IMG/VR virus record: IMGVR_UViG_3300010340_000980
From: an uncultured virus (IMG/VR IMGVR_UViG_3300010340_000980)
Lineage: Duplodnaviria > Heunggongvirae > Uroviricota > Caudoviricetes
Length of the DNA: 64,000 nucleotides
Reading direction: 5' to 3' (one strand)
In this document: piece after piece, positions 6,560 to 58,348 of the stretch
How the letters are laid out: each line of letters begins with the position of its first letter
Numbering within the stretch: position 1 is the stretch's first letter
The notes under the pieces: generated by a model
What the model was told of the DNA's origin: nothing
Database searches by the model: none
What the model saw: only the letters and a program-made list of their open reading frames with translations
Translations under genes and position numbers: made by a program

Positions 6560-6588
6560 TAAAAAAGAAGGGATTAACCCTTCTTTTC
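6560..6588. terminator. bidirectional terminator
   Basis: aaaagaaggg-attaa-cccttctttt inverted repeat between convergent genes. Confidence 0.65.
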
Positions 6589-11554: not shown

Positions 11555-11642
11555 TGTAGATGTGAGGAGTCGAACCTCAATTTACCTTACGGGAATCGAA
11601 CCCATACGGATGCCTCCGTTAAGTCACCAGACTACATCTACA
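11555..11642 (-). ncRNA. tRNA-like RNA with two T-arms and no anticodon loop
   Basis: Acceptor GTAGATG/CATCTAC-A, short D-arm, ACGGA-GGCA-TCCGT hairpin, then GGGTTCGATTCCC and GAGGTTCGACTCCTC. Confidence 0.55.
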
Positions 11643-25755: not shown

Positions 25756-26473
25756 CAAAAATTACTATAATATACTCGGTGTTACTCATGAGAGTACTGA
25801 GAAAGAAATAAAAAAATCTTATTATAAATTATCATTTGTTTATCATCCAGATAGAAACAAAGACATAGATACTACTATATTTAATTCTATAACAGAAGCA
25901 TATGATGTTCTTATGAGTTCTGAATTAAAATTAGAATATGATAAGAAAAGTAAATATGGTAAAGAATATAATGAACTTGAAGAATTATTTAAAGTAAATC
26001 TAGAATTCGATTATAATAGAGAAAATAATAAGTATGAGGAGTTTAAAAAAAATGCAGTACTTAATATAATTGAATATGTGGATGATAATTTTAATGGAAC
26101 AATTGAATATAATCGATGGGTTATATGTAAAAAATGTAATGGATCTGGTAAAGATACCAAATCTAAATTTGTTATTAAAGATGATAAAGGTAATATAAAA
26201 GGAGTTTTTGATTCAGATGATGGATGTGATTTTTGTGAAGGAACAGGAAAAGATCATTGGGGTAATAAATGTAGTTTCTGTTTCGGTCAAGGAAAAATAG
26301 GTTCTAAAGATTGTGATACTTGTAAAGGTGAAAAACGAATACTAGGAAAACAAAAACTAACAAAGATAAAATTAGATAAAGATAAAGATGAGACAATAGT
26401 TTCACACATGGGTCATTTTTCTAAATATGAGCCTGGTAAAGTTGGAAACCTTATACTAGTTAAAAAAATTTAA
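25745..26473 (+). CDS. DnaJ-family co-chaperone (J domain + zinc finger)
   Basis: YY.ILGV, HPD, four CxxCxGxG-type repeats. Confidence 0.92.
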   Translation: MNFNKNYYNILGVTHESTEKEIKKSYYKLSFVYHPDRNKDIDTTIFNSITEAYDVLMSSELKLEYDKKSKYGKEYNELEELFKVNLEFDYNRENNKYEEFKKNAVLNIIEYVDDNFNGTIEYNRWVICKKCNGSGKDTKSKFVIKDDKGNIKGVFDSDDGCDFCEGTGKDHWGNKCSFCFGQGKIGSKDCDTCKGEKRILGKQKLTKIKLDKDKDETIVSHMGHFSKYEPGKVGNLILVKKI

Positions 26474-29400
26474 TTTTTTTTCTTCGTTTCTGGTAATAAA
26501 TTAAAAATTCCTTTACTACTACCAGTCGTCTCTACACTACCAATACCACCAGAAAAACTGATAACAGGATTAATAGCTGTCTCAAATAAAGTCTCAGTAA
26601 TATTGATACTATCAATTAATGAAAATTCAGAATCGGAGTAATTTATTTGTGGAGCTACTGATGATAATGGTGCTTGAATTGATTGATTGATTCTATCCTC
26701 TCCGGCATAGTAGAAGAATGGAATAGCATCTACTTCATACATTTTAATGTAATCAAACTCAGTAGTATAAGGTTTTAATACAAAAACTACACCACCATCA
26801 GTTCCTAATGGAGTATTGTCATAATATGGTATACTAATACGAGCTAAGTAACCCCACACAGGATCAATTGTAATATCTTCTATTATAAAGAATCTATTAA
26901 TTTGTCCATTTAGATTAACATTTCTTTTAGAAACATATACTACGTCACCACCAGTTAAACCTGGATTTGATCCTGTAAAACCTAAATTATAACCACCACC
27001 ACTTGCTATAATATCATAAAAGTAAAGAGTTTGTGCCATAACCATTTGTAAAGATGGTTTATTATAGAAATATTCTTTCTTAATTATCTCAGATGTTTGA
27101 TTATGACCAACGATATCAGGAACTGCTGAAATATATGATACCAAATCATCACCTGTAAATAATTTAGCTTGAGGCTCATTTAATAAATATGGATATTTAA
27201 ATCCATTATTTTGAGATTGATGATTCATTTCAAATTCAATAATAGAATATCTAAATTTAGGTATATTTTTTGTGTTATCATTTTCAAGTAAAAATGGTCT
27301 ACTACTTTGAGTAACTGAAAATATTTTTAACTTATCAATATTATCAACAGATGTATTGGCAGTTAAAAATGGAGCCATTGTAACTCCACTAAAACTAGGA
27401 GTTAAAATACTTGTTCTCCACTTATTATTTTTTGTAAATCTATATAATCCTGGTATAGAGTATGTAACTCCCATTTCATATGATTCTGTTAACCCATCAA
27501 CATCCGACTCGAATAAACCGGTTACAAAACTTTGAGTTGAATTTATAGGATAATTAAAAAATGGATTTTCTATATAATCATCATATATTTGATATTTCCA
27601 CCCTAATGAATAATCTTTTATATCATCATTAAAAGTATTCTTAAAACTTGATATACTTGATAATATATCTTTAGTTGGATATCCATTATAATTAAGAATA
27701 GCTTTATTTGTTTCTAAATTAGCATCCCAAGAAATAGAATCTCTATAGATATTAGTCATTGATGATGTAAAATAATTTACATCAATCCAAGAATTATATT
27801 TTAAATAATTTTTAAATGTTGTAGAATCACTAAATCCGATATTTTCATCTTTGAATATAAAATTTTGAACTAATCCTGATGGATAGATAACAATCTGTCT
27901 ATCTTCATTTGAATTGTCAATATCATCCTGAATAGACATAGTTAATCCTTTAAATCTACCACCTTCAAACCTACCATCAATCCATTGAGAATCTATCATT
28001 TTTGTAATATATGGCCTTCCTTTAAATAATCCATTATTCCAAATTCCTTTAAATAATCCATTTAAAAATGCACCATTAAGCCAAATATTTTTTGAAAGAG
28101 AAATTAGATGGTTTTCAGAATCTTTTGAAATCCTTCTAATTGGGAAATTTAAAGTAACTTGTAATTTAATTATATCATCAGATACCTCAATAACTGTAAA
28201 ATAATCTCTTATAAGCTTTCTAGTATTATTAGAATCTAAACTAACAATATTACCAACAGCAACTTTATCACCAACTTTAAAATAATTTGGTATATTAAAA
28301 TCTTGTTGATTTAAAAATAAACCGTCATAATGAATATAACCTTTAGTTTTTCTTAAAGAAATAATCCAATTTTTAGTAGATGTTTTAATTTTTGTTAGAT
28401 TATTATCTATACTAGATGCTATATTTCCAATTTTTGTAGATTTTATATCAATAGATCCAGGAAAAGATAACGGTTTAGTGGTTCCTGGAAATATATCAAA
28501 ATCATCAAATAAATAAACATATTTATCATATCTCAATCCTTCATTCCAAACCCCATTTTCCCAAATACTTGAGAAAGCACTAGATGTTCCACTTGTGAAA
28601 ATACCATTACCAAATCGTGTAGATATTATATTACCATTGGATAAACCACCAATTAAGTCAATACTTGGTAGTAATAAATTATCATTATACGATGGGGTTG
28701 AATTTAACATTGAGTAAGTTGCGCAATTATATTCAGAATACTGAGATGTTTTTTTAACAACTTTAGCACTAGTTATTATTACTCTACCACCAGATGTGCC
28801 CGATATTTTTTTAATTTTCAATCTATCTAAATCTGAATAAGTTGCACCAATTGAAGTTGGTTCAAATGTTGAAGTCCAAGTTAACTCATCACTCTGACCA
28901 TACCAGGTCCCACTTGGTGGACATCCTATTTGATAAACTCTTAAATTCTGTGAAATTGATTCAACAAATCCACCATTATCATATCCAGGAAAATATCCTA
29001 CTTCTACTTGAAATCCTACTATTGCTATATTATTTAATGGTTCTGAAAAAGTTGGTCCATATTGTAGAACATATTTTATCTCAATATCATATTGACCAAA
29101 ATCTCTAAATATATTTCTATTTTGAGATGTATTTAAAGCGTATAAATAATTACCACCATTATATTCTATATAATAATTAGTATTATTCATAACTTGAGTT
29201 CCTTTATTCCAAACATATGGACCACCTGCAAATCCAACTGATGTAGTACAGTTTGTTAAATTTAAATATTTAGTATAAGATGTGGAATATTTCCATCTTT
29301 GTTGTGAACTTACAACAGACTGTGTAAAAGAAAGAGATGTTATATTTGGTTGGTCTTGTATAACTAACCAAGATGGATCAACACTAACAGTGAATGCATC

Positions 29401-32400
29401 ATTTATGAAAACATCACGATAACTATTATCATTAACAGATTGTCTATATAAAGAAATATTTGTTAATATATCAGAAACATATCCCTCATTAACTTCTATT
29501 CTTGGCGTACAAGACTCTTCTTGTATGATAATGCTATCAATATAAAAATCAGAGGTTCCATATGGATTAACATGTAAATAAAATTTACCATCATCTCTCG
29601 ATGTCAATATTTCAGTGATAGTTCCACCTAAAGTAGCTTGATAACCATCAACCCCAGATATTAATAAGTCAGGTACAGAACTTCCTACATGTCCTTCTAG
29701 ATCTGATAAATAATGAAAAATACTTATAGAATCTTCTCCTGATGCTACTTCTATAGCACTTGGATATAATGACCCATTATATGTTCCTGTAGTCTCACCA
29801 TATGATGCATTTATTTCACCTGGTCTACCTATACTAAATTGAATTCCAATTTTAGATAAATCAGATACATTAGCTATAGATACTGTTCCTATAGTAATAG
29901 TAATTTTATATTTATTTCCTAATGTGAATTGATTAGGAGATGTTGTTTTAATAAATGGTAGTCCAACACTATTAACAAGACTTAATGAATTATCAATGTC
30001 TAATTCAGTATCTTGATATGTTGAATAGAATCCAGAAACCTCCTCAACAAATGAAAAACTTGCACCATTTGTTATTGAAGTATCAACAAAAACTCTTGAT
30101 GATCCATTTAATGGTGAATTAGATAAATCTAGATTATCCCAAACTGAGTTCATTGCTAGATTAGCAATAGAACCATATGTATATAAACATCCATTAGGGT
30201 TAACACTATCATAACTAAAAGGAGATCCGTTCCAATTACCATTTCGCCATACACCACCTTCCCAATAAATATTATATGAATTCATATAATTAGCAACTCC
30301 GTTTTTCCATATCATCCCAACCGCAGTTCCAGATATCCATTTACCATTATTCCATTTAGAAATATAAAATTCTGAATCTTCAAATATTCCATTATCCCAA
30401 TAACAATTATCACTTATATTAAATCCACTTGTTCCCTTAACAACCTCAATATTTGAAATTGAGCAAGTTGCGATATTCCAACTTGGGACTGATGATAAAT
30501 TAGGAATTGTTTTAGGAATAAATTCTAAGCAAAAATCAGGGCCTACTGCATTAAATGTGTATGAAAAACTAGTTTTAGATGAAATATCAGATGATGTTAA
30601 GATAGTATTTCCAGTTAAAATAAACCCAGATAATTTATAAGTTGTATTAATAGTATTTGGTATAATTTGTAATACTAAGTCAGAATAAGCAGCTTCAAAT
30701 GTAAGAAAATATTCATTTGATGTACCACTAGGTACAGAATATGTGAAATTAGTATTAATAATAAAGTCATTTTGTAAAACACCACTTTCAATTATAACTT
30801 GGCTTGAGTCACAACTACCAACATATGGTGATGTAAATGATATTTCATCAAATGTGTAGAACTTAACAGTATAGATTTTACCAATATCTAAAATATCTGG
30901 ATATATTATATAACCAATACTATCACTTGTAGATGCATCATATTCAATATATCCTGGTGATCCAGTGGCGACCATCAATGTTGGTAATGTGGATGATGAT
31001 GTACTTGATAATATCCAATTTGAAAAAGATCCTGAAATTCCCTCAGTTAAATTTCTATTTCTAAGTGATGATGTCCAATTACCAAATCGAATTTCATTGT
31101 TATAATTTTCATCAACTATTAATCTCAATGTATATGTTTCTCCAATAATTAAACCTGATGTTTGATTGATATTAAGAATACTTGATGTTCCTAAAAATTT
31201 TAATAATTTACTAGAATCATTTGAATATAATTGATTAGATAAAACTTCAACCTGAGCTCCAATTATATCACCACTATCATAATCAAAATCAGTATAAGAA
31301 TTGTTCCAATATCCAATAGATCCTAAATTATTTTGATCAATTAATTGGAAATTACCATTTACTAAATAATTTACATAAGGATTAAATGATGATTTATAAA
31401 ATTTACCATTTAAAAAAGAACCACCAGTCCAAACAGAATTTTCCATAATTGCATTATTATGTGAAAATGTACCACCTCTCCATAATGAATTTTTAAATTC
31501 TACTGTAAGTGATTTCTTTTTCTTTGTAAATTGTCTTTCTAATTTTGTAAATGTTTTTTTATTTTTAATAGCAATATCTTTTACTTCACTAACATAACCA
31601 TTGTTCCATAACCCGTAAAAACTATCTGAAAAATTAGAAACATAACTAGGTATATTTGATAAATTTGTAGATTCTGTTCCAGAACCTATAAAATATCCTT
31701 TTGTTAAAATACCAGAATTCCAATATCTTCCTATAAAAATACCACCATTAAATTCACCATCATACCATGTTGAATTAGTACCTAAAGATGCGTTTCCAAA
31801 TTCACCACCGTTAAATTTACCATCTTGCCATGCAAAACTACTAGACCCAGCAGATGAATATGATGCTGCTGTAACATAAGGGTATCCATAATATGAAGTA
31901 AATTTACCATTATTAAATTCACCATTTTTCCAAATAGCTATATCATCAAAAGATCCATTATTAAAAGTTCCGTCATACCAAATTGCATTAAAAGGATAAC
32001 TAGGAGCAATTGATTCATACATTGATTCATCAATTTTAACTCCAAATAGACCGTTATTAAATATACCATTATACCAATCAATTTGGAAACTTCCAGAAGT
32101 GGCACCAGTTGGATTTTCAGTTTTAAATTCGGCTGAAATAACATTAATATTACTAAATGATCCTGATAATATACGTGTTAATGGATATTTTAAATTTCTT
32201 TTACCAAAATTTCCAGAAATTGCTTTTCCTGTTAAGAAAGTTGAATTATAGAAATCACCATTTGAAAATAAACCATTTTCAAAATTACTTAATTCAAATG
32301 ATCCATTTTCAAATGTTCCATTTTGCCAAGAATATCTTGTAATTCCTTGATTAATTAAATTCTTTTGCTTATAATAAGATTGTTTCAAATCACTATAAAT

Positions 32401-35400
32401 ATCAGATGTTAATGGTAAATTTGACTTATTTTTGTAAAATAACCCATTTTCAAAAATACCATTAATCCAAGTTGATTCTTTAACTATACCATTTTTAAAT
32501 TTATTAGTTATAGTAGAATTTATATTAGATCCAGTTGCTGAATTAGACCAAGTAAAACTATCAACATTCCAAATTGAATTATAGAATATACCATTTTCCC
32601 ACTTATCAGTTCCTGATATAAAAGATGAGTTAATAATTAATCCTGATTTTATAGTATTATTATTATCAGTGAATAAAATATCAGACAATAATAAGCTTCT
32701 CCAATTATTATAATTAATTGGATCTTTATCTAAATTATTAAATAATTGATTATCAATTATACAATCTTTGAAATAACTTCTTCTAAAAATACCAGATTGT
32801 ATTTTAGAATTTTCAAATTTAACAGGGTGTAAATAATTATAAGCATTTAATGCAAATTTTGTTGTTAATGAACTGACTGATACAGCATTTGTTACGTTAA
32901 ATAAAACAGATGATGTCACATATATAGCATCACTTATTTTTAAAACTCGACCATTACCACCTGGTGAATTACTATTAACTTTATATGTTTCTGGTAATTT
33001 AACTAGGTTATCACCACCTGTTAAAGTGGTATCATAATATAATCCATTTATAAACAAAATATCCGACTCTTTAAATAACTCTCTTCTATAATTTGAATAA
33101 ACAGATAATTCAATAGTACCTAAAGAACTATCTATATTTACAGCATCATAATATGATGATGATAATCCTGTATTCAGCGAATTATCTTTATTATAATTTA
33201 TATAGTTACCACTTATCCAAGTAGAATCTTTAAATAAACCACTCTTAAAATCGGAATCAACTAAATATGCATTAGATATATCTAATGTTTTAATAGTTTC
33301 AGAAAATACATTTCTATTAGATTGTGTAGAATAAATTGCAACTTCTGTAAAATCAACACCATCAGTTAATATTAAACTATCATATGTGTAAGATCCTTCT
33401 ACTGAAAAAATATTTCCACTATATGTCCATGTTCCAATCGATAAATTTGTTAGCTCATCATAAAGAATAGAATTCGAAAAAGTTGATGAAATAGTAGGAG
33501 AACCACCAGAATAGAAAATTTGTAAAACTGATAAGGTGGCATTCCAAGAAGTAGTTGATAAAAATTGAGATATGTCAAATATGTAGGGACCATATGATTC
33601 CTCAACTATTTGACTATTAAAATCTTCTATATTATTACTAGGACTAGCACAAATTATAATATCTATTGATGGATATCCATAATTAATATTAATACTTACT
33701 GATCCGTAAAGACCTGTTGGTATTTTATAATTATCTTCTTTAGTAGATAACTGTGTTATTACTCTTTTCTCACCTTTAGTGTTATCATCAAATGTTGAAT
33801 AATAAGAATCAATTGTAAATTTATCATCAAAGAAATTTAATACTGGTAAATTATTTTTAGTAATATTCAAACCATCAAAATAAAAACTTTGATTTTCTTT
33901 GAGTCTTTTAAATCCATCATCATTAATATAAAATTTATACATCTTATATTGAACATAATCTACACCATTATACCAATTAAATATTTTCTCATCATAATTT
34001 TGTATTTTGATTATTTTATCTGATGTGAATTTAGAATCTAAGAAAAGAGATTTCTCAAATTCAGAATTAACTGATTTCGATTTAAAAATTTTCGAATTTG
34101 AAATAATTGAACTAAATAATGATGAGTTAAGTATATTACTATAAATTATATCAGAATTTATATAATTACCAGATTTTGTAGTAACTGAATATGTTGGTGT
34201 TTGTGATATTAAATAATCTCCTAAAACCAACTCACTTGAGAAAGATCCAATTATAGAGTCATTGAATGTACCATTCTCAATTATAGAATTTTTTATATAA
34301 GAATCATAAACATAATTATATCCAATTCCTGAATTATTTTTCGCATTAATTTTAATATTTGGTAATCCAAATTCATCAAATGATGTGAAATATGATTCAT
34401 CACTACCAATTCCTTTCCCAATATTACCTATAATCCATTTAGTATTTAAAATACTACCCAATGAAAATTTAACATCTGATCCACTATAATTAATAGTTTC
34501 TTGATGAGTTCCTAATAAACCTTGATTAAATTCTCCTTTTTTGAAAGTACCATTTCTGAAGTTTTGTTCAGTTATTATTGGATTTAAATATTTTCTATCA
34601 ACCTTCCAAGTTGATTCATAATTATATGTATATCCTCTTTTAAATTTAATTCCAGATTTTTCAAAATCACTATTCATGATTTTCAAATCTCCATTATTTG
34701 TAAGACCTAATGATAAATAGTTACTATGACTACCTGATATAACATCAATTGTGATGTCTCTTAAATACCCAGATATTGTTCCACTAAGAACTAGAAATGA
34801 ATTTGAATAGGTTAAATAACTAATACCAGATGATGTAAATCCTAATATACCATATTCATTACCAGTAACTGAAAATGTACCATTAATATATAAAAAGTTA
34901 TTATTAGAAAATGTCCCATAATTAGAAAATCTATTAGCAACATAATCGTAATCTCTAGTAGAAGTTGTTTGAATAAAATAATCAAATTCTTCCTGACTTG
35001 ATGCAACATAAACTTTAACAAAATTATCAAGTGGTTCTTCAATATATGGAAGATTTCCATTATATTCAATATCTAAAACAACTTTAGTTCTATCAACATA
35101 TTGAACTATATAACCATCTGAAAGTTTATTAAACTTATTTTTCTGTATAACTAAGTCGGAATCATATTGACCACCCGTTATAAAAACTCTATCTCCTAAT
35201 TTTAAATTATGATCTACCTCAGTATAAAATAAAGTATATCTCTGGCCTTTAACTAAATATGGTTCAACATAATTTAATAATCTGATAGAAAAGCTTTTAT
35301 TGATTTTTTTATATAAAATCTCTTTAGTATTTAAAGAGACTATACTTTTAGTAGAATTTACACTAATTGTGGAATCTACAACTTTCTTATCAGCATCTGA

Positions 35401-35448
35401 TAGTTTTTTAGTTATGGTCTGAAGTGGAAATTTACCGGGTATTTTCAT
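26470..35448 (-). CDS. very large probable virion protein with (W/F)xxGx repeat blocks
   Basis: 2992 aa; many WxxGxFxxG pentapeptide blocks; S/T/N/G-rich; AATATATAC promoter. Confidence 0.7.
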   Translation of the reverse strand: MKIPGKFPLQTITKKLSDADKKVVDSTISVNSTKSIVSLNTKEILYKKINKSFSIRLLNYVEPYLVKGQRYTLFYTEVDHNLKLGDRVFITGGQYDSDLVIQKNKFNKLSDGYIVQYVDRTKVVLDIEYNGNLPYIEEPLDNFVKVYVASSQEEFDYFIQTTSTRDYDYVANRFSNYGTFSNNNFLYINGTFSVTGNEYGILGFTSSGISYLTYSNSFLVLSGTISGYLRDITIDVISGSHSNYLSLGLTNNGDLKIMNSDFEKSGIKFKRGYTYNYESTWKVDRKYLNPIITEQNFRNGTFKKGEFNQGLLGTHQETINYSGSDVKFSLGSILNTKWIIGNIGKGIGSDESYFTSFDEFGLPNIKINAKNNSGIGYNYVYDSYIKNSIIENGTFNDSIIGSFSSELVLGDYLISQTPTYSVTTKSGNYINSDIIYSNILNSSLFSSIISNSKIFKSKSVNSEFEKSLFLDSKFTSDKIIKIQNYDEKIFNWYNGVDYVQYKMYKFYINDDGFKRLKENQSFYFDGLNITKNNLPVLNFFDDKFTIDSYYSTFDDNTKGEKRVITQLSTKEDNYKIPTGLYGSVSININYGYPSIDIIICASPSNNIEDFNSQIVEESYGPYIFDISQFLSTTSWNATLSVLQIFYSGGSPTISSTFSNSILYDELTNLSIGTWTYSGNIFSVEGSYTYDSLILTDGVDFTEVAIYSTQSNRNVFSETIKTLDISNAYLVDSDFKSGLFKDSTWISGNYINYNKDNSLNTGLSSSYYDAVNIDSSLGTIELSVYSNYRRELFKESDILFINGLYYDTTLTGGDNLVKLPETYKVNSNSPGGNGRVLKISDAIYVTSSVLFNVTNAVSVSSLTTKFALNAYNYLHPVKFENSKIQSGIFRRSYFKDCIIDNQLFNNLDKDPINYNNWRSLLLSDILFTDNNNTIKSGLIINSSFISGTDKWENGIFYNSIWNVDSFTWSNSATGSNINSTITNKFKNGIVKESTWINGIFENGLFYKNKSNLPLTSDIYSDLKQSYYKQKNLINQGITRYSWQNGTFENGSFELSNFENGLFSNGDFYNSTFLTGKAISGNFGKRNLKYPLTRILSGSFSNINVISAEFKTENPTGATSGSFQIDWYNGIFNNGLFGVKIDESMYESIAPSYPFNAIWYDGTFNNGSFDDIAIWKNGEFNNGKFTSYYGYPYVTAASYSSAGSSSFAWQDGKFNGGEFGNASLGTNSTWYDGEFNGGIFIGRYWNSGILTKGYFIGSGTESTNLSNIPSYVSNFSDSFYGLWNNGYVSEVKDIAIKNKKTFTKLERQFTKKKKSLTVEFKNSLWRGGTFSHNNAIMENSVWTGGSFLNGKFYKSSFNPYVNYLVNGNFQLIDQNNLGSIGYWNNSYTDFDYDSGDIIGAQVEVLSNQLYSNDSSKLLKFLGTSSILNINQTSGLIIGETYTLRLIVDENYNNEIRFGNWTSSLRNRNLTEGISGSFSNWILSSTSSSTLPTLMVATGSPGYIEYDASTSDSIGYIIYPDILDIGKIYTVKFYTFDEISFTSPYVGSCDSSQVIIESGVLQNDFIINTNFTYSVPSGTSNEYFLTFEAAYSDLVLQIIPNTINTTYKLSGFILTGNTILTSSDISSKTSFSYTFNAVGPDFCLEFIPKTIPNLSSVPSWNIATCSISNIEVVKGTSGFNISDNCYWDNGIFEDSEFYISKWNNGKWISGTAVGMIWKNGVANYMNSYNIYWEGGVWRNGNWNGSPFSYDSVNPNGCLYTYGSIANLAMNSVWDNLDLSNSPLNGSSRVFVDTSITNGASFSFVEEVSGFYSTYQDTELDIDNSLSLVNSVGLPFIKTTSPNQFTLGNKYKITITIGTVSIANVSDLSKIGIQFSIGRPGEINASYGETTGTYNGSLYPSAIEVASGEDSISIFHYLSDLEGHVGSSVPDLLISGVDGYQATLGGTITEILTSRDDGKFYLHVNPYGTSDFYIDSIIIQEESCTPRIEVNEGYVSDILTNISLYRQSVNDNSYRDVFINDAFTVSVDPSWLVIQDQPNITSLSFTQSVVSSQQRWKYSTSYTKYLNLTNCTTSVGFAGGPYVWNKGTQVMNNTNYYIEYNGGNYLYALNTSQNRNIFRDFGQYDIEIKYVLQYGPTFSEPLNNIAIVGFQVEVGYFPGYDNGGFVESISQNLRVYQIGCPPSGTWYGQSDELTWTSTFEPTSIGATYSDLDRLKIKKISGTSGGRVIITSAKVVKKTSQYSEYNCATYSMLNSTPSYNDNLLLPSIDLIGGLSNGNIISTRFGNGIFTSGTSSAFSSIWENGVWNEGLRYDKYVYLFDDFDIFPGTTKPLSFPGSIDIKSTKIGNIASSIDNNLTKIKTSTKNWIISLRKTKGYIHYDGLFLNQQDFNIPNYFKVGDKVAVGNIVSLDSNNTRKLIRDYFTVIEVSDDIIKLQVTLNFPIRRISKDSENHLISLSKNIWLNGAFLNGLFKGIWNNGLFKGRPYITKMIDSQWIDGRFEGGRFKGLTMSIQDDIDNSNEDRQIVIYPSGLVQNFIFKDENIGFSDSTTFKNYLKYNSWIDVNYFTSSMTNIYRDSISWDANLETNKAILNYNGYPTKDILSSISSFKNTFNDDIKDYSLGWKYQIYDDYIENPFFNYPINSTQSFVTGLFESDVDGLTESYEMGVTYSIPGLYRFTKNNKWRTSILTPSFSGVTMAPFLTANTSVDNIDKLKIFSVTQSSRPFLLENDNTKNIPKFRYSIIEFEMNHQSQNNGFKYPYLLNEPQAKLFTGDDLVSYISAVPDIVGHNQTSEIIKKEYFYNKPSLQMVMAQTLYFYDIIASGGGYNLGFTGSNPGLTGGDVVYVSKRNVNLNGQINRFFIIEDITIDPVWGYLARISIPYYDNTPLGTDGGVVFVLKPYTTEFDYIKMYEVDAIPFFYYAGEDRINQSIQAPLSSVAPQINYSDSEFSLIDSINITETLFETAINPVISFSGGIGSVETTGSSKGIFNLLPETKKKN

Positions 35449-46525: not shown

Positions 46526-46875
46526 ATGAACACAATTTTAGATTTCGCATCTAGTTACTGGTGGATTGTAGCCATTTTGCTCTCCGCTGTATTTTACAAA
46601 TCCATTTTCCGCCTTTTCGGTATAGTAATTGTACCAGAAGATAAAATCGGGCTTGTTACAAAAAAATTCGTTCTGTTCGGAGCGAACAAAGAACTTAGTG
46701 GTGATCGTATCATCGCAACAAATGGTGAAGCTGGTCTTCAATCAGACTATCTAGCACCAGGGGTGGAACATCAATAGATGGTTTACTTGGACTTCAAATC
46801 TTAGACAAAATGGGTAAAAGCATTGCTCCTACTCAGGAAGTAAAAGAAATTGAAGAACCAAAGTCTAAGAAATAA
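46526..46875 (+). pseudogene. SPFH/band-7 (flotillin-like) gene with large internal deletion
   Basis: N-terminus ..VPEDKIGLVTKKF..IIATNGEAG.Q...LAPG joined out of frame to a C-terminal tail GGTSIDGLLGLQILDKMGK..KK. Confidence 0.7.
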
Positions 46876-46887
46876 TTTAGACTTTAA

Positions 46888-46927
46888 TAAAAAACCCCTG
46901 TCAATTAACTTTGACAGGGGTTTTTTG
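46888..46927. terminator. bidirectional terminator
   Basis: aaaaaacccctgtcaa-ttaact-ttgacaggggtttttt. Confidence 0.85.
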
Positions 46928-47192
46928 TTGTTGGATTATTTAACTATATTTTTACCGACTATTTTATTTTCTAGCCACTTTGATATAAATCTAAAGTCTC
47001 TAGTTTTTATATCAGTATATTCACCAATATCTCTTTTCATATCTTCAAGTAGATCATCCCAAGTAATAGTATCTGAATTACCTGAGTTTGTAATTGAATC
47101 TTTTCTCTTCTGAAGATATTCTCTAACCTTATCAGAATTATTCTGTATATATTAAAGTTTAAAATCAAAAAACCTACATATACACCCAACCG

Positions 47193-47528
47193 TTAGACAA
47201 CATTCAGTTTGAAGAACCCACATTTACCATCCTCAACTTCGTCATCATAATCCTTGTATTTGAAGAAAATCCAACCACCAGTTCTACTATGTTTGATGTC
47301 TATTGTATCTTCAATAACAAATTGTCCTATTTCAGACATTTCTTCTATTAGTATTTTCTTCAAACCTTCGTCATCCATCGCACAATGTTGAAGATTAACA
47401 CTATCCCTATGTCCATCATTAGTAAGTAGATAAACTGAACGTTGTCTAACATCAGATATATTCAAGTTTTCTGATTCAGTTAGTTTCTGTTTGAAAGTGT
47501 CTATGTATTTTCTCATTTCGTGTTCCAT
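47193..47528 (-). CDS. cassette protein with attC-encoded leader (..LTESENLNISD-VR)
   Basis: 111-aa ORF whose stop lies within the GTCTAAC core. Confidence 0.7.
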   Translation of the reverse strand: MEHEMRKYIDTFKQKLTESENLNISDVRQRSVYLLTNDGHRDSVNLQHCAMDDEGLKKILIEEMSEIGQFVIEDTIDIKHSRTGGWIFFKYKDYDDEVEDGKCGFFKLNVV

Positions 47529-47601
47529 AATTTTGCTTTATATATAAATATCAGAAAACCTAAATATATCTGAGGAGCGTTATGTGTAATAAAAAATAAA
47601 A

Positions 47602-47808
47602 CTACTTACTTCCTTTCTGAACACCAATTATATAACCATTGACAAACGATATTAGTTCTGAGTTATTATTGTCAAATCCACCAAAATTATCTGCTTCTTC
47701 CATTGCTTCTTCTATTAAGTCATCATCATCTGATATACAATGTGATTTGACAATATAGAACATTTCGCTATATTCTTTACTTTCATTGAATTTTCTAATA
47801 TGTTTCAT
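47602..47808 (-). CDS. cassette protein with MKHIRKFNES leader
   Basis: 68-aa ORF between ~22-bp inverted repeats. Confidence 0.7.
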   Translation of the reverse strand: MKHIRKFNESKEYSEMFYIVKSHCISDDDDLIEEAMEEADNFGGFDNNNSELISFVNGYIIGVQKGSK

Positions 47809-47865
47809 AATTAATCCCGTTTTATTTTTACTACACATAACAAGGTGTATATGTAAGTTTTTTAT

Positions 47866-48214
47866 TTAGTTATATCCTCTTTTTCTTTCATGTAATCTCA
47901 TGAAATAAACCGCTAATGATTTTATAACTAATTCTTTATCAACACAATCACTAATTAAATTGGTGAGTTCTTCGACATGATCAATAATCTTCATTCGATC
48001 ATTATCATCTATTTCATCTAAATCTTCTTGTAAATCTTCGAAATTAGCACTACCAAATTGCGTTGATAAGATAGAATCTTCTTCACTACCGAACCATTCC
48101 ATATCTTTATTTTCTTCAGCTTATCTACTATTAATTCAAATGAAATAATTAGTAAAGACAGTAATTTTGTTTTCTTTTTTGGAATTCATTAAATTTTTTA
48201 ATATGATTATTCAT
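47866..48214 (-). pseudogene. disrupted gene with MNNHIKKFNEF leader
   Basis: ATG at 48214 gives MNNHIKKFNEFQK then stops; an acidic 78-aa remainder survives at 47866..48102. Confidence 0.5.
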
Positions 48215-48336
48215 AATTATTTTTATTTATTTTTTGAATCCCCGAATAGTCAAAATGAAAATTCAGTAAAGTTATTTATATATAAAATATCCACTTCCCT
48301 ATATGAATAATGTTCAAGAAAATATATATTAAAATT

Positions 48337-48364
48337 AAATGACTATCGGCTTGATAGTCATTTA
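48337..48364 (-). terminator. hairpin/terminator
   Basis: aaatgactatc-ggctt-gatagtcattt. Confidence 0.6.
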
Positions 48365-48381
48365 AAATTATTTCCATCATT

Positions 48382-48939
48382 TCAAGTGGTCTTTAATTTA
48401 TACAAGTCAATAAGTGATTTAATACACTCAATTACTTTCTCAGATGAGGTTCCTATTTCAACTTCCATTGAAGTTCCACGATGATCATATCCAATGTGAA
48501 ATTTAACACCATCTATCTCAACAAAATGAGATGCGAACCTTGATTTGTTTTCTGGTTCTAAATAATCATCAGTTTCATCATCATACTCACCTTCAAAACC
48601 TTCACCGAATTCATCGTGGTATAGTGGATCACCAAGTAGAGATTTAAGAACATCTTCATCAAAAACTGATGTAAATACAAATATTCCTATATTGGCGTAT
48701 ATCCTTTCAGATTTACCATTCAATTTATCAATAATTCGAAGTTTATCTATCTTATCATTATAAAATGATAATCCACCTGGCAGGTCTCCATCAAATACAT
48801 CAACAAAATACTTCCCAACTTCAGCATACCAATTTTTACTCCTATCATTGATAAGAATATTCATCTGTGGGGTTAGCTTTGTTTTACCCTTTACATAATC
48901 ACTTAATTCTTTTGAATAAGATTCAAACTTCTTTATCAT
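48382..48939 (-). CDS. hypothetical protein with MIKKFESY leader
   Basis: 185-aa ORF. Confidence 0.65.
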   Translation of the reverse strand: MIKKFESYSKELSDYVKGKTKLTPQMNILINDRSKNWYAEVGKYFVDVFDGDLPGGLSFYNDKIDKLRIIDKLNGKSERIYANIGIFVFTSVFDEDVLKSLLGDPLYHDEFGEGFEGEYDDETDDYLEPENKSRFASHFVEIDGVKFHIGYDHRGTSMEVEIGTSSEKVIECIKSLIDLYKLKTT

Positions 48940-48960: not shown

Positions 48961-49608
48961 TTAGTATCGGTAATTTTTTTCAGGTTTACGACATTTTATT
49001 TGAGAACGCCAGTTATTTTTCTCACCAATTGCTACTTCAAGTTTTGCATTCTTTCTTTTCATTACAAGACCTTCTATCATTTCGATTTTAGTATAGTTAT
49101 CAAAAATATTTTTAAAACCTGAGTCATATGATTTTGAATGATAGATATTGTCTGATATACCATAAAAGTATTCTTTATCTGATGAATTTTGACCATATAT
49201 ATTATCTAACATATCTATTCTTTCTTCAAAAGTCTTTCCTATTAGATAATCAGAATCTAAAACTAATATATCAAAAATAATTAATTTTTGGTTGAAAATA
49301 ATACCTCTTTCATCCCTTTTACTTTTATTTAAAGTTTCACCATTTAAAACTAACCATCCACCTTTAATATTTAAAGGCCTATATAGGTTTTCTATAATTT
49401 CATCTCTTGATATTTGAAAATTTGTTAGATTTTGATTGTGTCTTCCCATTACTCTAAGAGTTTCACCATTAGTGAAAATCAATGTGTTGGAACCATTGAT
49501 TTTCAATTGTGATTTCATTGTTCTGTTATCCCAGAAATTTAAATCTTCTGGACTTATAGCATTGGCAGGACGACAAGGGTAGATATATCTGAAATTATTA
49601 TACGTCAT
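48961..49608 (-). CDS. ATP-dependent ligase/capping-enzyme-type nucleotidyltransferase domain
   Basis: QLKING (KxNG), LNGE, IFDIL, EGLVMK, QIKCRK; no OB domain. Confidence 0.75.
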   Translation of the reverse strand: MTYNNFRYIYPCRPANAISPEDLNFWDNRTMKSQLKINGSNTLIFTNGETLRVMGRHNQNLTNFQISRDEIIENLYRPLNIKGGWLVLNGETLNKSKRDERGIIFNQKLIIFDILVLDSDYLIGKTFEERIDMLDNIYGQNSSDKEYFYGISDNIYHSKSYDSGFKNIFDNYTKIEMIEGLVMKRKNAKLEVAIGEKNNWRSQIKCRKPEKNYRY

Positions 49609-49675: not shown

Positions 49676-50725
49676 ATGAAAACTATTTGGACTAAGGATA
49701 GATGTTTAGAAGAAGCTTTAAAATTTAAAACTAGAAATAATTTTAGAAAAAATTCTCCAAGTGCATATAATAAATCATTAAAGAAAAAATGGCTAAATGA
49801 TATTTGTACTCATATGAATGAAGTAAAAAAGCCTAAAGATTATTGGACTAAAGAAGAATGTCATAAAGAGTCTCTAAAATATAGTACAAGAAGTGACTTT
49901 AATAGAGAAAGTGTTTCTGCCTATTCAAAAGCTTGGGAGAATAATTGGTTAGATGATATATGTAATCATATGAAATATTGTGGTAATAAATTTAAAAGAT
50001 GTATTTATGTTTATGAGTTTTCAGACAACCATGCCTATGTTGGTTTGACATTTAATATACATACACGTAATCAACAACATTCGAAAAGAGGCCCAGTATT
50101 TAATCATATCAAATCTACTAATATAAATCCAGAATTTAAAAAAATAACAGATTATATAAATATAGATGATGCTAAAATTAAAGAATTTGATTATATAAAT
50201 TTATATAAAAAAAATGGTTGGAAATTATTAAACTCTGCGAAATCCGGAGCTTGTGGTGGTGGTGATAGAAAATGGACAAAAGAAAAGTGTGAGATAGAAG
50301 CTTTAAAATATAGTAATGTGTGTGATTATAAGAAAAACTCTCTTTCTTATAGAGCAGCAGTTAGAAACAAATGGTTAGATGATATATGTACTCATATGAA
50401 TCGTAAAAAAAATCCACATAATTACTGGACCAAAGAAAAATGTCAGGAAGAGGCTTTAAAATTTAAAACAAGAAAAGAATTTGAGCTAAAATTTCCAGGT
50501 GGTTATGCAGCTAGTAGAATAAATGGTTGGTTAGATGAAATATGCTGTCATATGAATAAAATAAAAGTCAAGCCTGCCGGATATTGGACAAAAGAAAAAT
50601 GTTATAATGAATCAATCAAGTATAAATATAGAAGTGATTTTCAAAAAGGATGTATATCAGCATATACAATTTCAGTAAGAAATAAATGGTTGGATGAAAT
50701 TTGTCAACATATGATCAGTAAATAA
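49676..50725 (+). CDS. GIY-YIG-like endonuclease with five ~50-aa tandem repeats
   Basis: Central CIYVYEF...AYVGLT....R..QH..E...LN; repeats WTKEKC..EALKY..R..F......AY......WLDDIC.HM. Confidence 0.75.
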   Translation: MKTIWTKDRCLEEALKFKTRNNFRKNSPSAYNKSLKKKWLNDICTHMNEVKKPKDYWTKEECHKESLKYSTRSDFNRESVSAYSKAWENNWLDDICNHMKYCGNKFKRCIYVYEFSDNHAYVGLTFNIHTRNQQHSKRGPVFNHIKSTNINPEFKKITDYINIDDAKIKEFDYINLYKKNGWKLLNSAKSGACGGGDRKWTKEKCEIEALKYSNVCDYKKNSLSYRAAVRNKWLDDICTHMNRKKNPHNYWTKEKCQEEALKFKTRKEFELKFPGGYAASRINGWLDEICCHMNKIKVKPAGYWTKEKCYNESIKYKYRSDFQKGCISAYTISVRNKWLDEICQHMISK

Positions 50726-50771: not shown

Positions 50772-51278
50772 ATGAAACTAAATGAACTATTTGATGATGA
50801 ATTTCAGAAAAATCTAAATCAAGATTTATCTAAGGATGATATAACTGATCAAGATATAGATACTAATTTTAGAAGTCCTGTAGCTGGTTTTTTTAAAAAA
50901 TTAAGATACTTCATTCCTGTTCTTAACAAGTGTATAGATTTTGAAGATGAAAATCATTTTGTATTACAAAAAAATGATGTTTTTTTATTTATAGTTAGAA
51001 ATGAATCTTACCACGTAAGTATATCAATCTATTTTAGAGAAAAATCAAAAGTAGATTTATGTATTTTATACCAAAAATCTGATTATCGTGGTGATGTGTT
51101 TGTTAAAGATATAACAACTGGTGATACTGAGTATTGTTACTTAACAGATTTTGATAATGTTACAATAGAGGAAACTATTGATATTTTGAAAAACAATTTT
51201 CTACCTTTATTAAAAAGATTGGGATTTACAGAAGATTATTCTTCAAATAAGAATAAAAATATTGAAAGATTTAATTAA
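50772..51278 (+). CDS. hypothetical protein
   Basis: 168-aa ORF with AATATATA upstream. Confidence 0.6.
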   Translation: MKLNELFDDEFQKNLNQDLSKDDITDQDIDTNFRSPVAGFFKKLRYFIPVLNKCIDFEDENHFVLQKNDVFLFIVRNESYHVSISIYFREKSKVDLCILYQKSDYRGDVFVKDITTGDTEYCYLTDFDNVTIEETIDILKNNFLPLLKRLGFTEDYSSNKNKNIERFN

Positions 51279-57754: not shown

Positions 57755-58348
57755 TTATAAAAACATATCATCTAATAATTCAAACTCTTTTTCAGTCTCT
57801 TTCATTAGAATGTTTCTACCATTACGTATTTGAGATTTCACTGTAGATAAATTAAGTTTTAATTTATCAGCGATATCTTTATATTGCATTTTATCAATTT
57901 CCCTCATTTCTATAACTCTTCTATAAGGATCTTTTAATTCAGAAATTCTTTTTTTCATTATTTCTGCTTTTTGTAACATCAAATTATGTAGATATTCCTG
58001 TGATTCTTCTTCTTGAAGAAAATCTTTCATTGTTGTGCCTTCTTCATCAATTTCAACATCAAGTGACATTGTTTTTTTAGAATTTTTAATGTCTTGTAAC
58101 ATTAAGTTTTTAGCGATAGTGAAAAGCCAAGTTGAGAATTGAGACTTTTCTTTTTCATACTTATCAATTTTTTCAAATGCAATTAAGAATGAGTCAGTTG
58201 AAATATCTTCAGCTTTTTGTGGATCATTACACATTCTAGATGTGTAATAAATTAATTTTGGGTAATACTTTGTGTAAAAGAAAGAAAAATCTTTTCCTGT
58301 TCTTTCTCTAAATAATTTTTCTTGCTCTGGAAAAAATGTTGAAATCAT
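57755..58348 (-). CDS. ECF-type RNA polymerase sigma factor
   Basis: AEDI..D.F, FSTWLFTIAKN, Y.DIA..L.....TVKS.I..GR. Confidence 0.93.
   Translation of the reverse strand: MISTFFPEQEKLFRERTGKDFSFFYTKYYPKLIYYTSRMCNDPQKAEDISTDSFLIAFEKIDKYEKEKSQFSTWLFTIAKNLMLQDIKNSKKTMSLDVEIDEEGTTMKDFLQEEESQEYLHNLMLQKAEIMKKRISELKDPYRRVIEMREIDKMQYKDIADKLKLNLSTVKSQIRNGRNILMKETEKEFELLDDMFL

Follow-up and report, generated by a model that had tools for sequence, protein, structure and literature searches.

On the minus strand of a 64,000-nucleotide stretch of DNA from an uncultured Caudoviricetes virus (the window; IMG/VR record IMGVR_UViG_3300010340_000980) lies a compact array of hairpins and small genes, which we consider is probably an integrase-less remnant of an integron-like, and probably recombinase-driven, cassette system of huge phages. 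Integrons combine an IntI integrase, an attI site and cassettes bounded by attC sites; clusters of two or more attC sites without an integrase are termed CALINs. Such systems are known as gene-capture devices of bacteria and, recently, archaea. An attC site consists of R'' (RYYYAAC), an imperfect L''/L' stem with bulged bases, and R' (GTTRRRY). The cassettes are mostly promoterless and depend on a platform promoter, and attI lies beside intI, which is usually divergent. The phage array is not a canonical integron, and the link to integrons drawn in a first-pass annotation of the window is not supported as membership proper: it has neither an IntI-type integrase nor a canonical attC site. Because the window's sites are not canonical attC sites, comparison with a CALIN is an analogy only. 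What survives in the window is a short, damaged array with two intact cassettes, a single intact hairpin, halves of two more hairpins, and a truncated gene on either flank. One of the relatives has a contig that extends to 480 kb.

The array is built from four inverted repeats nested within 700 bp, with gaps of only 1-5 nt between them. The outermost pair (47167-47186 / 47844-47863; 20 nt, 95% complementary, 19/20 positions paired) surrounds a 22-nt repeat enclosing gene B (47579-47600 / 47820-47841; 86% complementary), the 24-nt arms of a hairpin that we call E2 (47452-47475 / 47550-47573; 92%) and the 19-nt ends of cassette C (47192-47210 / 47432-47450; 95%). The first-pass annotation had described repeats of about 22 bp around gene 47808-47602 and a hairpin with 22/24-matching arms, and both are there; the complementary ends of the second coding unit, given as 10 nt, extend in fact to 19 nt. 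A search of all 64 kb for inverted repeats (exact 10-nt seed, arms of at least 16 nt, at least 85% complementary, 20-1200 nt apart) returned only 20, among which the array's four rank 2, 3, 4 and 10 by match number. Folded as single-stranded DNA, the 711-nt array gives a four-way junction made of exactly these repeats at -87.4 kcal/mol, compared with -51.3 +/- 4 kcal/mol for shuffles of the same stretch (z = -9.0; 0/20 fold equally well).

At the centre of this structure is the one complete hairpin site, E2 (47447..47582, minus strand), which reads TAAC-g-ctc, left arm (47550-47573), promoter-like motif TTTATATATA (47539-47548), ATG (47528), leader codons, right arm (47452-47475) and GTTA. The loop thus holds all that the first-pass annotation had placed there, a motif that it read as a late-type promoter and an ATG followed by a leader peptide fused in frame to the cassette body: the 27-residue leader, MEHEMRKYIDTFKQKLTESENLNISDV, is in frame with the 111-aa ORF 47528..47193, and the right arm itself codes for ENLNISD. 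Both mismatches between the arms are G.T pairs on the coding strand, which also folds better (z -3.5) than the opposite strand (-2.3). With a stem of 25 bp, E2 is the only TAAC-hairpin-GTTA site of the window that stands above chance; the other eight matches have stems of 11-13 bp, and shuffled sequences yield 6-14 matches. The promoter-like motif is itself over-represented, as TTWATATATA occurs 23 times in the window against 5.2 expected (0/100 shuffles reach 23), and at least 12 of these copies precede, by 4-22 nt, the ATG of a same-strand ORF of at least 110 aa. The late class assigned to the motif in the first-pass annotation is not supported. A scan for sigma-70-type promoters gave a chance-level result (12 found, 12.7 expected).

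Each side of E2 is occupied by a cassette. Cassette B (47579..47841, minus), which runs GTTATGTGTAGT...ATTACACATAAC and has 22-nt terminal inverted repeats, contains gene B (47808..47602, minus; 68 aa) with its own start, MKHIRKFNES, and its end sequences recur in other loci. Cassette C (47192..47450, minus; GTTAGACAACGTTCAGTTT...AAACTGAATGTTGTCTAAC) has 19-nt terminal repeats that both fall within coding sequence. It forms the start-less body of gene C (full ORF 47528..47193, minus; 111 aa), and its stems overlap the coding sequence and include the stop codon. The cores of cassette C fit the attC consensus (GTCTAAC / GTTAGAC), whereas those of cassette B (ACATAAC / GTTATGT) do not. Besides the cassette-specific part, cassette ends share a loose 12-nt consensus (GTTAGTGATAGT / GTTATGTGTAGT and complements). 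Genes A, B and C have no family in Pfam or PHROGs, and the ESM Atlas offered no lead for the gene C body. Relatives of gene C differ in their surroundings: in loci L004 and L069 a 92-96% identical orthologue is followed by a different hairpin, in L070 the cassette ends have decayed, and in L071 the relative is an ordinary gene without cassette ends. Comparison with L071 hints that the terminal repeat of cassette C may have been built from the gene's own 3' coding end, and thereby at an origin of cassettes from ordinary genes.

The first-pass annotation had suggested searching the genome for more LNISDV-type junctions. Among viral loci these are widespread: the exact 24-mer of the E2 right arm occurs at 61 viral loci (51 distinct copies), and these 61 related loci served as our comparison set. 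The left arm accompanies 39 of 49 right-arm copies, in all 39 with TAAC no more than 12 nt upstream; it is absent from the other 10/49 leader copies, several of which are cut beside the promoter. The loop ATG leads in frame into a cassette body in 46/46 DNA copies, with bodies of 9-219 aa and 39 different leader sequences. With the left arm as the only selection criterion for sites, at least 16 of 18 positions paired in 14 of the 18 distinct arm pairs. Arm variants co-vary on both sides, the G.T pair at arm position 13 is retained in 14 paired arm variants, and the stems have no bulges, with conserved G.T pairs instead. A blastn search of the E2 hairpin against 50,697 deposited phage records, whose low-complexity filter may hide a match, returned none, and ENLNISDV and its shorter forms had no occurrence in the literature searched.

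Gene units bounded by GTTA...TAAC, with their own 12-26-nt terminal inverted repeats, are general in the related contigs. They are arranged head-to-tail at fixed spacing to intervening hairpin sites of several families, of the form TAAC-g-(2-4 nt)-stem...stem-(1-2 nt)-GTTA. The array of L004 is a clean example, with terminal repeats matching at 24/26, 15/16 and 24/26 positions. The loci hold 392 distinct TAAC-hairpin-GTTA sites, against 15-279 (most 41-133) for fifteen control tetramer pairs. Cognate cassette ends agree at 10.4/16 positions beyond the core and non-cognate ends at 6.2 (both strands counted), and at least 12/16 matches are reached by 105/255 cognate end pairs against 2.2% of non-cognate ones, counts that include related loci and are not of independent events. 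The hairpin type is linked to the next 9-18 nt, the leader type being followed by AGTGATAGT in 19/49 copies and the leaderless type by TGTGTTAGTAAAAA. One of the cassettes in L074 encodes a DNA methylase.

The same mixing of parts is visible among proteins. Gene C has 86 protein matches, of which 18 cover at least 60% of it and 68 cover only 20-63%. In the 32 that we compared, 22 share the leader only and have unrelated bodies, and this is true of every partial-cover match compared. Among the 10 body homologues, four start with the leader of gene C, two with a different ENLNISDV leader and four with an unrelated N-terminus, so gene C bodies are found behind different leaders or without one. 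The related DNA thus supports the earlier proposal of cassette shuffling in which a hairpin donates expression signals and a leader to the next ORF.

Strain comparison places changes at the cores. In run X4, a near-identical strain from another metagenome, there are 0 differences over cassette B and gene A, and after the TAAC-g of cassette B another hairpin follows and gene C is absent. The window and L004 likewise diverge after the TAAC-g of gene C. Between loci, 23 of 37 internal homology ends lie within 12 nt of a TAAC| or |GTTA boundary, compared with 8% of random positions, the endpoints again including related loci and so not being independent events. Cassette content therefore varies among relatives, with breakpoints at the cores, which is what the first-pass annotation had proposed to look for. 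Several run joints with 21-23-nt sides and window parts uncovered in some runs were excluded. No circles or excision junctions were seen in the run contigs, a data type blind to rare forms. Run pieces with an intact hairpin were considered as circles from the window locus and rejected, because they differ from the window at several letters and are thus other copies.

The outermost repeat has a different history. Its right half (47844..47871, minus) belongs to a leaderless promoter hairpin, E*, and comprises the 3' loop part and right arm (47844-47863), then tt-GTTA. Its left half (47145..47191, minus) belongs to a second E* and comprises the spacer ggttg, the left arm (47167-47186) and the promoter-like TTAATATATA (47146-47155); it ends after TATATAC and finds no partner arm downstream (9/18 pairs). 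Neither end of gene A (47866..48102, minus; 78 aa), a cassette-family gene, is in its original form. The loop of the broken hairpin supplies its final residues and stop codon: the 96% identical P0090 (95 aa) adds MKHIKKFNENKD in front and ends in ...RGHEKDFYL, and the window copy ends in ...RGYN*. A further homologue, P0093, bears an ENFNISDVSDS-type leader. The original 5' end of gene A is split by a 73-nt insertion (48112..48184, minus), leaving a 21-codon stub ORF at 48149-48214 (MNNHIKKFNEF...); contigs of runs X4 and X5 lack precisely this 73-nt segment and so read ...FNENKDMEW..., like P0090, and in runs X2 and X3 the 73-nt piece stands at 5-10 times local depth. At the other flank, the gene D fragment (46936..47151, minus) is joined to the loop at a shared TATATAC and covers residues 49-119 of a 119-aa protein, over which it is 100% identical to P0087; the first 48 residues are missing from the window. 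The complementary junction, the 5' half of gene D joined at TATATAC to an E* loop, occurs in L074/L075, and in run X4 gene D is intact at the corresponding place. Gene A and the gene D fragment had no usable relatives in viral_contigs.

The outer repeat is thus what survives of two different E* copies, one half of each, after separate illegitimate exchanges in their loops; one exchange was a deletion between the loop TATATAC and the TATATAC within gene D (7-nt homology). An alternative reading, in which one circle (B-E2-C and one hairpin) was opened in the hairpin loop and inserted into gene D to leave the outer repeat, is ruled out by run X4: there the gene A/hairpin junction coexists with an unbroken gene D, and the two junctions must have arisen separately, on two hairpin copies. 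The first-pass annotation was right that the outer arms belong to a hairpin site, as the E* halves are contiguous in at least six other loci (L042, L013 twice, L027, L055, L057 and L074 three times), but not that they are halves of one copy. Strain X4 diverges after TAAC-g, but both reconstructable rearrangements of the window broke in loops and not at the GTT core. These events are evidence that hairpin loops are fragile points for illegitimate exchange. L067, the closest flank relative (74% nucleotide identity; matching the 168-aa ORF 50772-51278, the ATP-dependent ligase-like ORF 48961-49608 and the 185-aa ORF 48382-48939), was rejected as an empty-site comparison, as a tRNA-like sequence and other genes occupy the array position.

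A tyrosine recombinase was not found in the 64-kb window, in keeping with the first-pass annotation (tblastn with three related integrases, best E 0.054; no PF00589 match among 50 window ORFs scanned with Pfam). In related contigs, however, one does accompany the arrays: a single PF00589 gene is present in 7/10 related contigs (122-318 kb), at distances computed from coordinates of 1.1, 1.2, 1.3, 1.4, 2.2, 3.3 and 11.8 kb from a copy; on the other 3/10 (55-85% complete) it was not found. In all five integrase loci that were examined, it follows the array and is read in the same direction. The enzyme (266-268 aa) belongs to the Xer/IntI clade, scoring 151 bits on TIGR02249 (cut-off 265) and 104 on NF011946 (cut-off 435); its best model is XerA-type (184 bits, cut-off 220), and its best solved relatives are the XerC-like protein 4a8e and then IntI4 2a3v. 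Since it matches the integron-integrase model in two stretches, the IntI-specific insert appears to be missing. The deposited proteins closest to it are annotated as integrases of Cellulophaga (40% identity) and Polaribacter (37.5%) phages, and one contig that carries it is classed as a provirus, so it could be an ordinary integration enzyme located in the same variable region.

If these elements form a cassette system, the two ends of a circular cassette and a hairpin would together make one long folded site with attC topology (R''-L''-loop-L'-R'). If integration proceeds by a cut near G|TTA, each cassette would keep its own R' part at the 5' end, which would explain the cassette-specific terminal repeats. 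The likely catalyst is the small recombinase encoded beside arrays in related phages, which probably acts on the folded coding strand, the strand on which G.T is the form of the conserved non-Watson-Crick pairs. In one of the hairpin families, to which 47447-47582 belongs, the loop carries a promoter-like motif, a start codon and a leader of 22-27 residues, and since the final leader codons, ENLNISDV, are the right arm plus GTT, a start-less body landing downstream would be expressed as a leader fusion. Against this mechanism, the link between hairpin type and the next 9-18 nt means that a conserved block spans the supposed crossover point, and the two datable rearrangements lie in loops beside the promoter motif and not at GTTA, as short-homology exchange would give.

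Like integrons, the phage loci have head-to-tail arrays of mostly single-gene cassettes, junctions at which ...AAC and GTT... cores enclose an imperfect hairpin, cassettes whose first bases are complementary to the bases before the 3' hairpin as if a folded site had been cut at G|TT, and, in relatives, an Xer/IntI-clade tyrosine recombinase beside the arrays; integrase-less arrays such as the window's exist in both. Unlike in integrons, the carrier here is a phage, the recombinase is about 267 aa, falls below the integron-integrase cut-offs and lies downstream of the array in the same orientation, cassette terminal repeats are 12-26 nt instead of about 7, and stems have a conserved G.T pair in place of bulged bases. 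The phage hairpin loops also hold promoter-like motifs, start codons and leaders, so cassettes would be expressed as fusions and not from one platform promoter. Xer-dependent elements include the dif modules of Acinetobacter plasmids and the CTX phage, which integrates through a single-strand hairpin. In these elements as well, gene modules with inverted sites at their ends are moved by Xer-type recombinases, or such enzymes use a folded single strand as substrate, but they are the host's XerC/D working on 28-bp dif-like sites, and no dif-like site was identified in the phage array.

Another precedent needs no recombinase: the promoter-early stem-loops (PeSLs) of T4-type phages recombine by homology, according to two reports (PMC2839356, PMC4122927). 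As described there, PeSLs are likewise repeated promoter and stem-loop modules that separate small accessory genes within the variable regions of large phage genomes, and mark points of gene gain, loss and replacement (PMC2839356, PMC4122927); their crossovers lie in the promoter region, between the -10 box and the Shine-Dalgarno sequence, like the window's TATATAC junctions, and mini-circles have been detected (PMC2839356). That the promoter-hairpin-leader units are regulatory modules of this kind, swapped by general homologous or microhomology recombination, we consider unlikely, even if the only events that can be reconstructed (the gene D cut at the TATATAC shared with the loop and its complement in L074/L075), the leader copies cut beside the promoter and the lack of a recombinase in the window all speak for it. 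It does not account for the position of hairpins from unrelated families, all at fixed spacing between TAAC and GTTA, for the terminal inverted repeat specific to each cassette, for the divergence of X4 and the window exactly after TAAC-g, or for a recombinase that lies within 1-3.3 kb of an array in 6/10 large contigs and, in one more, at 11.8 kb. As described (PMC2839356, PMC4122927), PeSLs also differ in having no conserved flanking cores, no coding leader and genes without terminal inverted repeats of their own. In the phage array the promoter is inside the loop. Of the window ORFs that were scanned, none was noticed to be a T4-type core gene.

A role confined to RNA, with stems serving mRNA processing, stability, termination or translational control and conserved for expression instead of mobility, seems very unlikely to us. 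It would suit the G.U character of the non-Watson-Crick pairs on the better-folding coding strand, the folding of the entire region as a four-way junction, and the RNA ligases and polynucleotide-kinase-like protein that the window encodes. However, the main hairpin cannot form in a transcript from the loop promoter, which does not include the left arm, the cassette C stems lie within coding sequence, stop codon included, and no Rfam family reaches threshold in the array (sub-threshold terminator-like matches fall near 46800-47030, none on the cassettes). Nor does it explain the presence or absence of a cassette at TAAC-g between near-identical strains, or many bodies behind one leader. We give hardly any credence to the idea that the cassettes are miniature transposons, elements with terminal inverted repeats of a GTTA-type family that use a transposase encoded elsewhere and hairpins as preferred targets. 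The loose 12-nt consensus of the ends would fit, but no target-site duplications were seen in the junction sequences inspected, the window ORFs scanned matched no transposase family, and head-to-tail arrays with fixed hairpin spacing fit site-specific insertion.

The leader itself recalls the internal-protein locus of T-even phages, in which a conserved capsid-targeting leader is carried by variable proteins. Both have a short conserved N-terminal peptide of the MK...F.E type on unrelated small proteins in a variable locus; here, by contrast, the last leader codons double as a DNA hairpin arm. We speculate, as a decidedly long shot, that the hairpin sites are fusion-making devices whose promoter, start codon and N-terminal tag label any captured ORF, that the leader MK.HIK.FNE...ENLNISDV could direct virion packaging or host delivery, and that the array may be a shuffled library of injected or early-acting effectors, such as anti-defence proteins.

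In the literature searched, no integron or attC is reported for huge, jumbo or mega phages, and we found no phage-encoded or viral integron and nothing on integron-like phage arrays; a phage cassette system with leader-donating hairpins has no published description that we could find. If the cassette-system reading is true, such a phage counterpart of integrons would be a distinct solution to gene capture, with a smaller Xer-like enzyme, long cassette-specific end repeats and sites that encode a promoter, start codon and leader. To our knowledge the birth of cassettes from ordinary genes is an open question for integrons, and in these phages it may be visible, as the same gene occurs as an ordinary gene, a cassette and a decaying cassette. 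The window adds an eroding integrase-less array and, in a pair of near-identical strains, a difference located exactly at a core site. A system of this kind would explain the turnover of the many small orphan genes in very large phages, and would provide a handle for finding exchangeable phage genes, possibly including anti-defence genes.

Four ORFs read from the minus-strand sequence, A, B, C and D (47866..48102, 47602..47808, 47193..47528 and 46936..47151; 48102-46936 overall), are accompanied by four inverted repeats that all lie within 700 bp. A 20-nt outer pair (47844-47863 / 47167-47186; 95%) encloses the other three, which measure 22 nt (47820-47841 / 47579-47600; 86%), 24 nt (47550-47573 / 47452-47475; 92%) and 19 nt (47432-47450 / 47192-47210; 95%), with gaps of only 1-5 nt between neighbouring arms. 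Only 20 comparable inverted repeats (10-nt exact seed, arms of at least 16 nt, at least 85% complementary, 20-1200 nt apart) occur in the whole 64-kb window, among which these rank 2, 3, 4 and 10 by number of matches. Folded as single-stranded DNA, the 711-nt stretch forms a four-way junction of the same repeats (z = -9.0; 0 of 20 shuffles as good). Given the ranks and the folding against shuffles, the repeats, all four of which the first-pass annotation had described, are real and far beyond chance.

The hairpin preceding the body of gene C (47447-47582), which we call the leader site, recurs as a module. Searched against proteins, the 111-aa gene C product gave 86 matches, 18 covering at least 60% of the protein and 68 only 20-63% of it. 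Among 32 fetched for inspection, 22 have only MEHEMRKYIDTFKQKLTESENLNISDV or a close variant in common with gene C, their bodies being unrelated, and the other ten are homologues of the gene C body, with the same leader (4), a different leader also ending in ENLNISDV (2) or unrelated N-termini (4). The 24-mer encoding ENLNISDV is present exactly in 61 viral-contig loci (51 distinct copies), and the site follows one plan: the TAAC of the preceding unit, G plus 3-4 nt, left arm CAGATATATTTAGGTTTTC, a T-run with TTAATATATA, about 20 nt, ATG and 12-20 leader codons, right arm GAAAACTTGAATATATCTG, AT and GTTA. The left arm is found in 39 of the 49 copies with enough upstream DNA, each time with TAAC at most 12 nt upstream of it, and in 46 of 46 copies an in-frame loop ATG opens a frame that passes through the arm and continues for 9-219 aa of body; the 39 distinct leader sequences retain a pattern such as MKDLKHIKRFNE. 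The further LNISDV-type junctions that had been suggested as a search target therefore exist in other viral loci, but the window has no second whole site above chance: the hairpin at 47447-47582 is its only one, and the leader-type N-terminal motif is confined to gene B and the broken 5' end of gene A (2 of 377 ATG-ORFs), with none elsewhere in the 20,158 residues scanned. A blastn search of 50,697 deposited phage records gave no match to the site, and we found no published description of such a phage cassette system in the literature searched.

A clean array is present at L004, a related viral-contig locus whose gene C orthologue is 92% identical in DNA and 94% in protein. Its units begin with GTTA, end with TAAC, carry their own terminal inverted repeats (24/26, 15/16 and 24/26 matches) and are separated by several hairpin families: the leader type; E*, a leaderless promoter hairpin with arms GGTGTATATGTAG / CTACATATACACC; a GCGTATATACGC type; and small hairpins of 12 bp whose loop reads TCGTTTTAAT. 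The spacing is always TAAC-g-(2-4 nt)-stem...stem-(1-2 nt)-GTTA. Over all loci, each selected for at least one such site, there are 392 distinct TAAC-hairpin-GTTA sites, against these counts for fifteen other tetramer pairs: TAGC 15, TAAG 41, TTAC 44, AATC 57, GAAT 71, CAAT 72, ATAC 74, AACT 74, TATC 88, TCAA 91, CTAA 95, TGAA 129, AAAC 133, GTTA in reverse arrangement 190 and TAAT 279. Cognate ends of units between consecutive sites match at 10.4 of 16 positions beyond the core, versus 6.2 for non-cognate ends, and 105 of 255 cognate pairs reach at least 12 matches, versus 2.2% of non-cognate pairs, in a comparison that counts both strands and can count a single unit twice. With the left arm as the only criterion for choosing sites, 18 distinct arm pairs were obtained, of which 14 paired at least 16 of 18 positions with the bases just before a downstream GTTA, arm variants changing on both sides together. 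These 14 keep a G.T pair at arm position 13, which would be an A.C mismatch on the opposite strand, and folding of the window hairpin is stronger on the coding strand than on the other (z -3.5 vs -2.3).

We propose that a circle in which a unit's 3' end and the hairpin behind it are linked to the 5' end of the same unit would fold into a single long site: the unit terminal repeat, TAAC/GTTA included, would be its outer stem and the hairpin its inner stem, separated by a small internal loop. A cut near G^TTA and insertion of the circle would then give the observed layout, in which the unit opens with its own outer-stem half and would carry the other half and the hairpin on its 3' side. Integron cassettes have this same arrangement, although the outer stems of the phage system are much longer. 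The hairpin at 47447-47582 would belong to cassette B (47579..47841) and serve cassette C (47192..47450), which fits the earlier suggestion that this site equips the next cassette.

Three forms of gene C suggest how a cassette may be made. At L071 it is an ordinary gene (71% identical protein) with its own start and a plain terminator hairpin, lacking GTTA/TAAC. In the window and at L004 the coding sequence finishes with ...KLNVV-stop, the TAA-C of which forms the core, and 19 nt at the 5' junction, encoding VRQRSV, mirror this 3' end. At L070 both ends have decayed, one position having changed on both sides (AGAC/GTCT to ATAC/GTAT). From these three sequences, it looks as if the 5' arm was made from gene C's own 3' end.

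Contigs of four public metagenome runs from different studies (X2-X5) were aligned to 46700-48400. X2 and X3 are arranged as the window is, without a single difference. In X4, gene A and cassette B are likewise identical to the window copies, but past TAAC-g at 47578 the contig runs into another hairpin (arm GGTGTATATGTAGTGTGAG...) and gene C is not seen; X4 also carries 1534 extra bases at 46761/46762, in or beside an 83-aa ORF (46526-46777), in a contig otherwise identical. The X5 copy of gene C has 10 differences in 289 nt and its flank diverges 5 nt past TAAC, and the window and L004 part right past gene C's TAAC-g. Among internal ends of high-identity matches between loci, 23 of 37 lie at most 12 nt from a boundary after TAAC or before GTTA, versus 8% of random positions, counts that are not independent because the loci are related.

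The outer repeat arms are halves of the E* hairpin, whose form is TAAC-ggtt-GGGTGTATATGTAGGTTTTTT...TTTAATATATAC, about 5 nt, AACTAAAT-AAAAAACTTACATATACACC-tt-GTTA. E* is intact at L042, L013 (twice), L027, L055, L057 and L074 (three times), and cassettes behind it usually start GTTATGTGT..., as does cassette B. In the window its right half comes after gene A and its left half, together with the promoter motif, after cassette C. Only part of gene D is present: the homologous P0087 (119 aa) matches it at 100% identity over residues 49-119, residues 1-48 are missing from the window, and the junction falls within TATATAC, common to the E* loop and the gene D codons Y-I-Q. The other half is carried by L074 and L075, which are identical to each other; L075 shares its data set with L073, the locus that is the window's own DNA. 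In both, TATATAC links gene D residues 1-53 to the 3' part of an E* loop, behind which come a right arm, GTTA and a long array including an N6/N4 DNA methylase cassette. Gene A, 96% identical to its homologue P0090, has lost the last six residues to two residues and a stop codon from the E* loop. X4 has an intact gene D at the window's position, and its 30-nt loose end past 47151 matches, in exact reverse complement, gene D codons present in L074. Because X4 combines the gene A/E* junction with intact gene D, the two junctions arose separately, each on its own E* copy, and a single circle opened in its loop is not needed as the origin of the outer repeat. Of the first-pass view of the outer ends as halves of one second site, the complementary halves stand, but they come from two copies. 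That view also expected breakpoints among relatives at the GTT core; X4 and L004 do part from the window right after TAAC-g, but both datable breaks lie just downstream of the loop promoter motif, not at GTTA. A 73-nt insertion (48112-48184, three bases ambiguous at the joint) splits gene A's original MKHIKKFNE start and is absent from the otherwise identical X4 and X5 contigs; its coverage in X2 and X3 reaches 5-10 times that of the surroundings, which suggests a small mobile or repeated element. With two whole cassettes, one whole site, two half sites and truncated neighbours on both sides, the array is an eroding remnant.

No tyrosine recombinase gene was found in the 64-kb window, but the search did place one near the arrays of relatives: among ten large contigs carrying the leader site, seven have exactly one PF00589 match, 1.1, 1.2, 1.3, 1.4, 2.2, 3.3 and 11.8 kb from a site copy by coordinates, and three, which are 55-85% complete, have none. 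The array-associated enzyme (266-268 aa; PF13495 and PF00589) has as its best NCBIfam model the XerA-type 'tyrosine recombinase/integron integrase' (184 bits vs a cut-off of 220), scores 151 bits vs 265 on the integron-integrase model, in two stretches, and has a XerC-like protein and IntI4 as its best solved relatives. Hairpin sites were detected in four of five recombinase loci examined, mainly upstream of the gene: three loci have only upstream sites (3, 3 and 2), L066 adds two weaker downstream sites to its three upstream ones, and L065 has none detected, with an ENLNISDV-leader ORF upstream. In four of the five, a TAT.ATATA-like motif before the gene adjoins the last TAAC or AAC. At two of the five loci (L065 1101-1962, L066 1101-1902) the gene is present as two separate ORFs (137 + 118 aa), which could reflect a frameshift, decay or an assembly error.

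The window, AT-rich at about 27% G+C, is part of a huge phage genome. It encodes a Gln/Glu-type tRNA synthetase, NAD-dependent, ATP-dependent and RNA ligases, SbcC-like, Sir2-like, sigma-factor-like (57755-58348) and translation-initiation-factor-like proteins, several HNH endonucleases and a 2992-aa ORF (26470-35448) with no family match in Pfam or PHROG. The best matches to the NAD-ligase, at 70-72% identity, come from two uncultured phages (635 and 642 kb), followed by Bacteroides phages at about 30-34%. A shorter second tRNA-synthetase-type ORF lies near the full synthetase (6574-7389 and 8103-9707; phrog_35649, phrog_12136), with three HNH endonuclease genes close by (9727-10548, 11638-12246, 14321-14863). 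A 349-aa ORF (49676-50725; phrog_20046) with four internal repeats and a possible GIY-YIG-like motif, read by eye, sits between a 168-aa ORF and an ATP-dependent ligase-like ORF; since these two are adjacent without it in the related L067, a homing-endonuclease-type insertion is suggested. TTWATATATA, 4.4x over-represented at 23 places (e.g. 4959, 8097, 18408, 36736, 49644, 63313) and 4-22 nt upstream of ATG in at least 12 ORFs of at least 110 aa, is probably the promoter motif of this phage, with very short leaders. Just upstream of the array, a terminator-like 13-14 bp hairpin (48335-48365) after a 185-aa ORF, with TTTTAATATA directly next, makes a plain terminator-promoter pair.

We lean towards a site-specific, integron-like mechanism, which best explains why unrelated hairpins sit between fixed cores, why each cassette has end repeats of its own, why strains part exactly at TAAC-g and why relatives have a recombinase nearby. 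A function of the repeats in RNA only seems improbable, and transposon-like cassettes highly improbable. Several observations speak against the integron-like reading: the recombinase is missing from the window and the three relatives, and the enzyme may be one for ordinary integration, since the deposited proteins closest to it are integrases of Cellulophaga and Polaribacter phages (40% and 37.5% identity) and one carrier contig is classed as a provirus. Each hairpin type is also tied to a particular following 9-18 nt, which could reflect frame compatibility or an exchanged block that crosses the core. Finally, the loop-located breaks resemble the promoter-region crossovers described for PeSLs of T4-type phages (PMC2839356, PMC4122927); we consider it unlikely that such homologous shuffling alone built the arrays, but site-specific and PeSL-like exchange may well operate together.

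The phage system would work like an integron, yet by its recombinase and its expression signals it falls outside the integrons. As for what such arrays carry, cassettes at L074 (3636-4613 and 4712-5380) hold the N6/N4 DNA methylase (PF01555, 1.3e-29) and a weak SAM-methyltransferase-like ORF, and cargo of this kind would fit a role in counter-defence.
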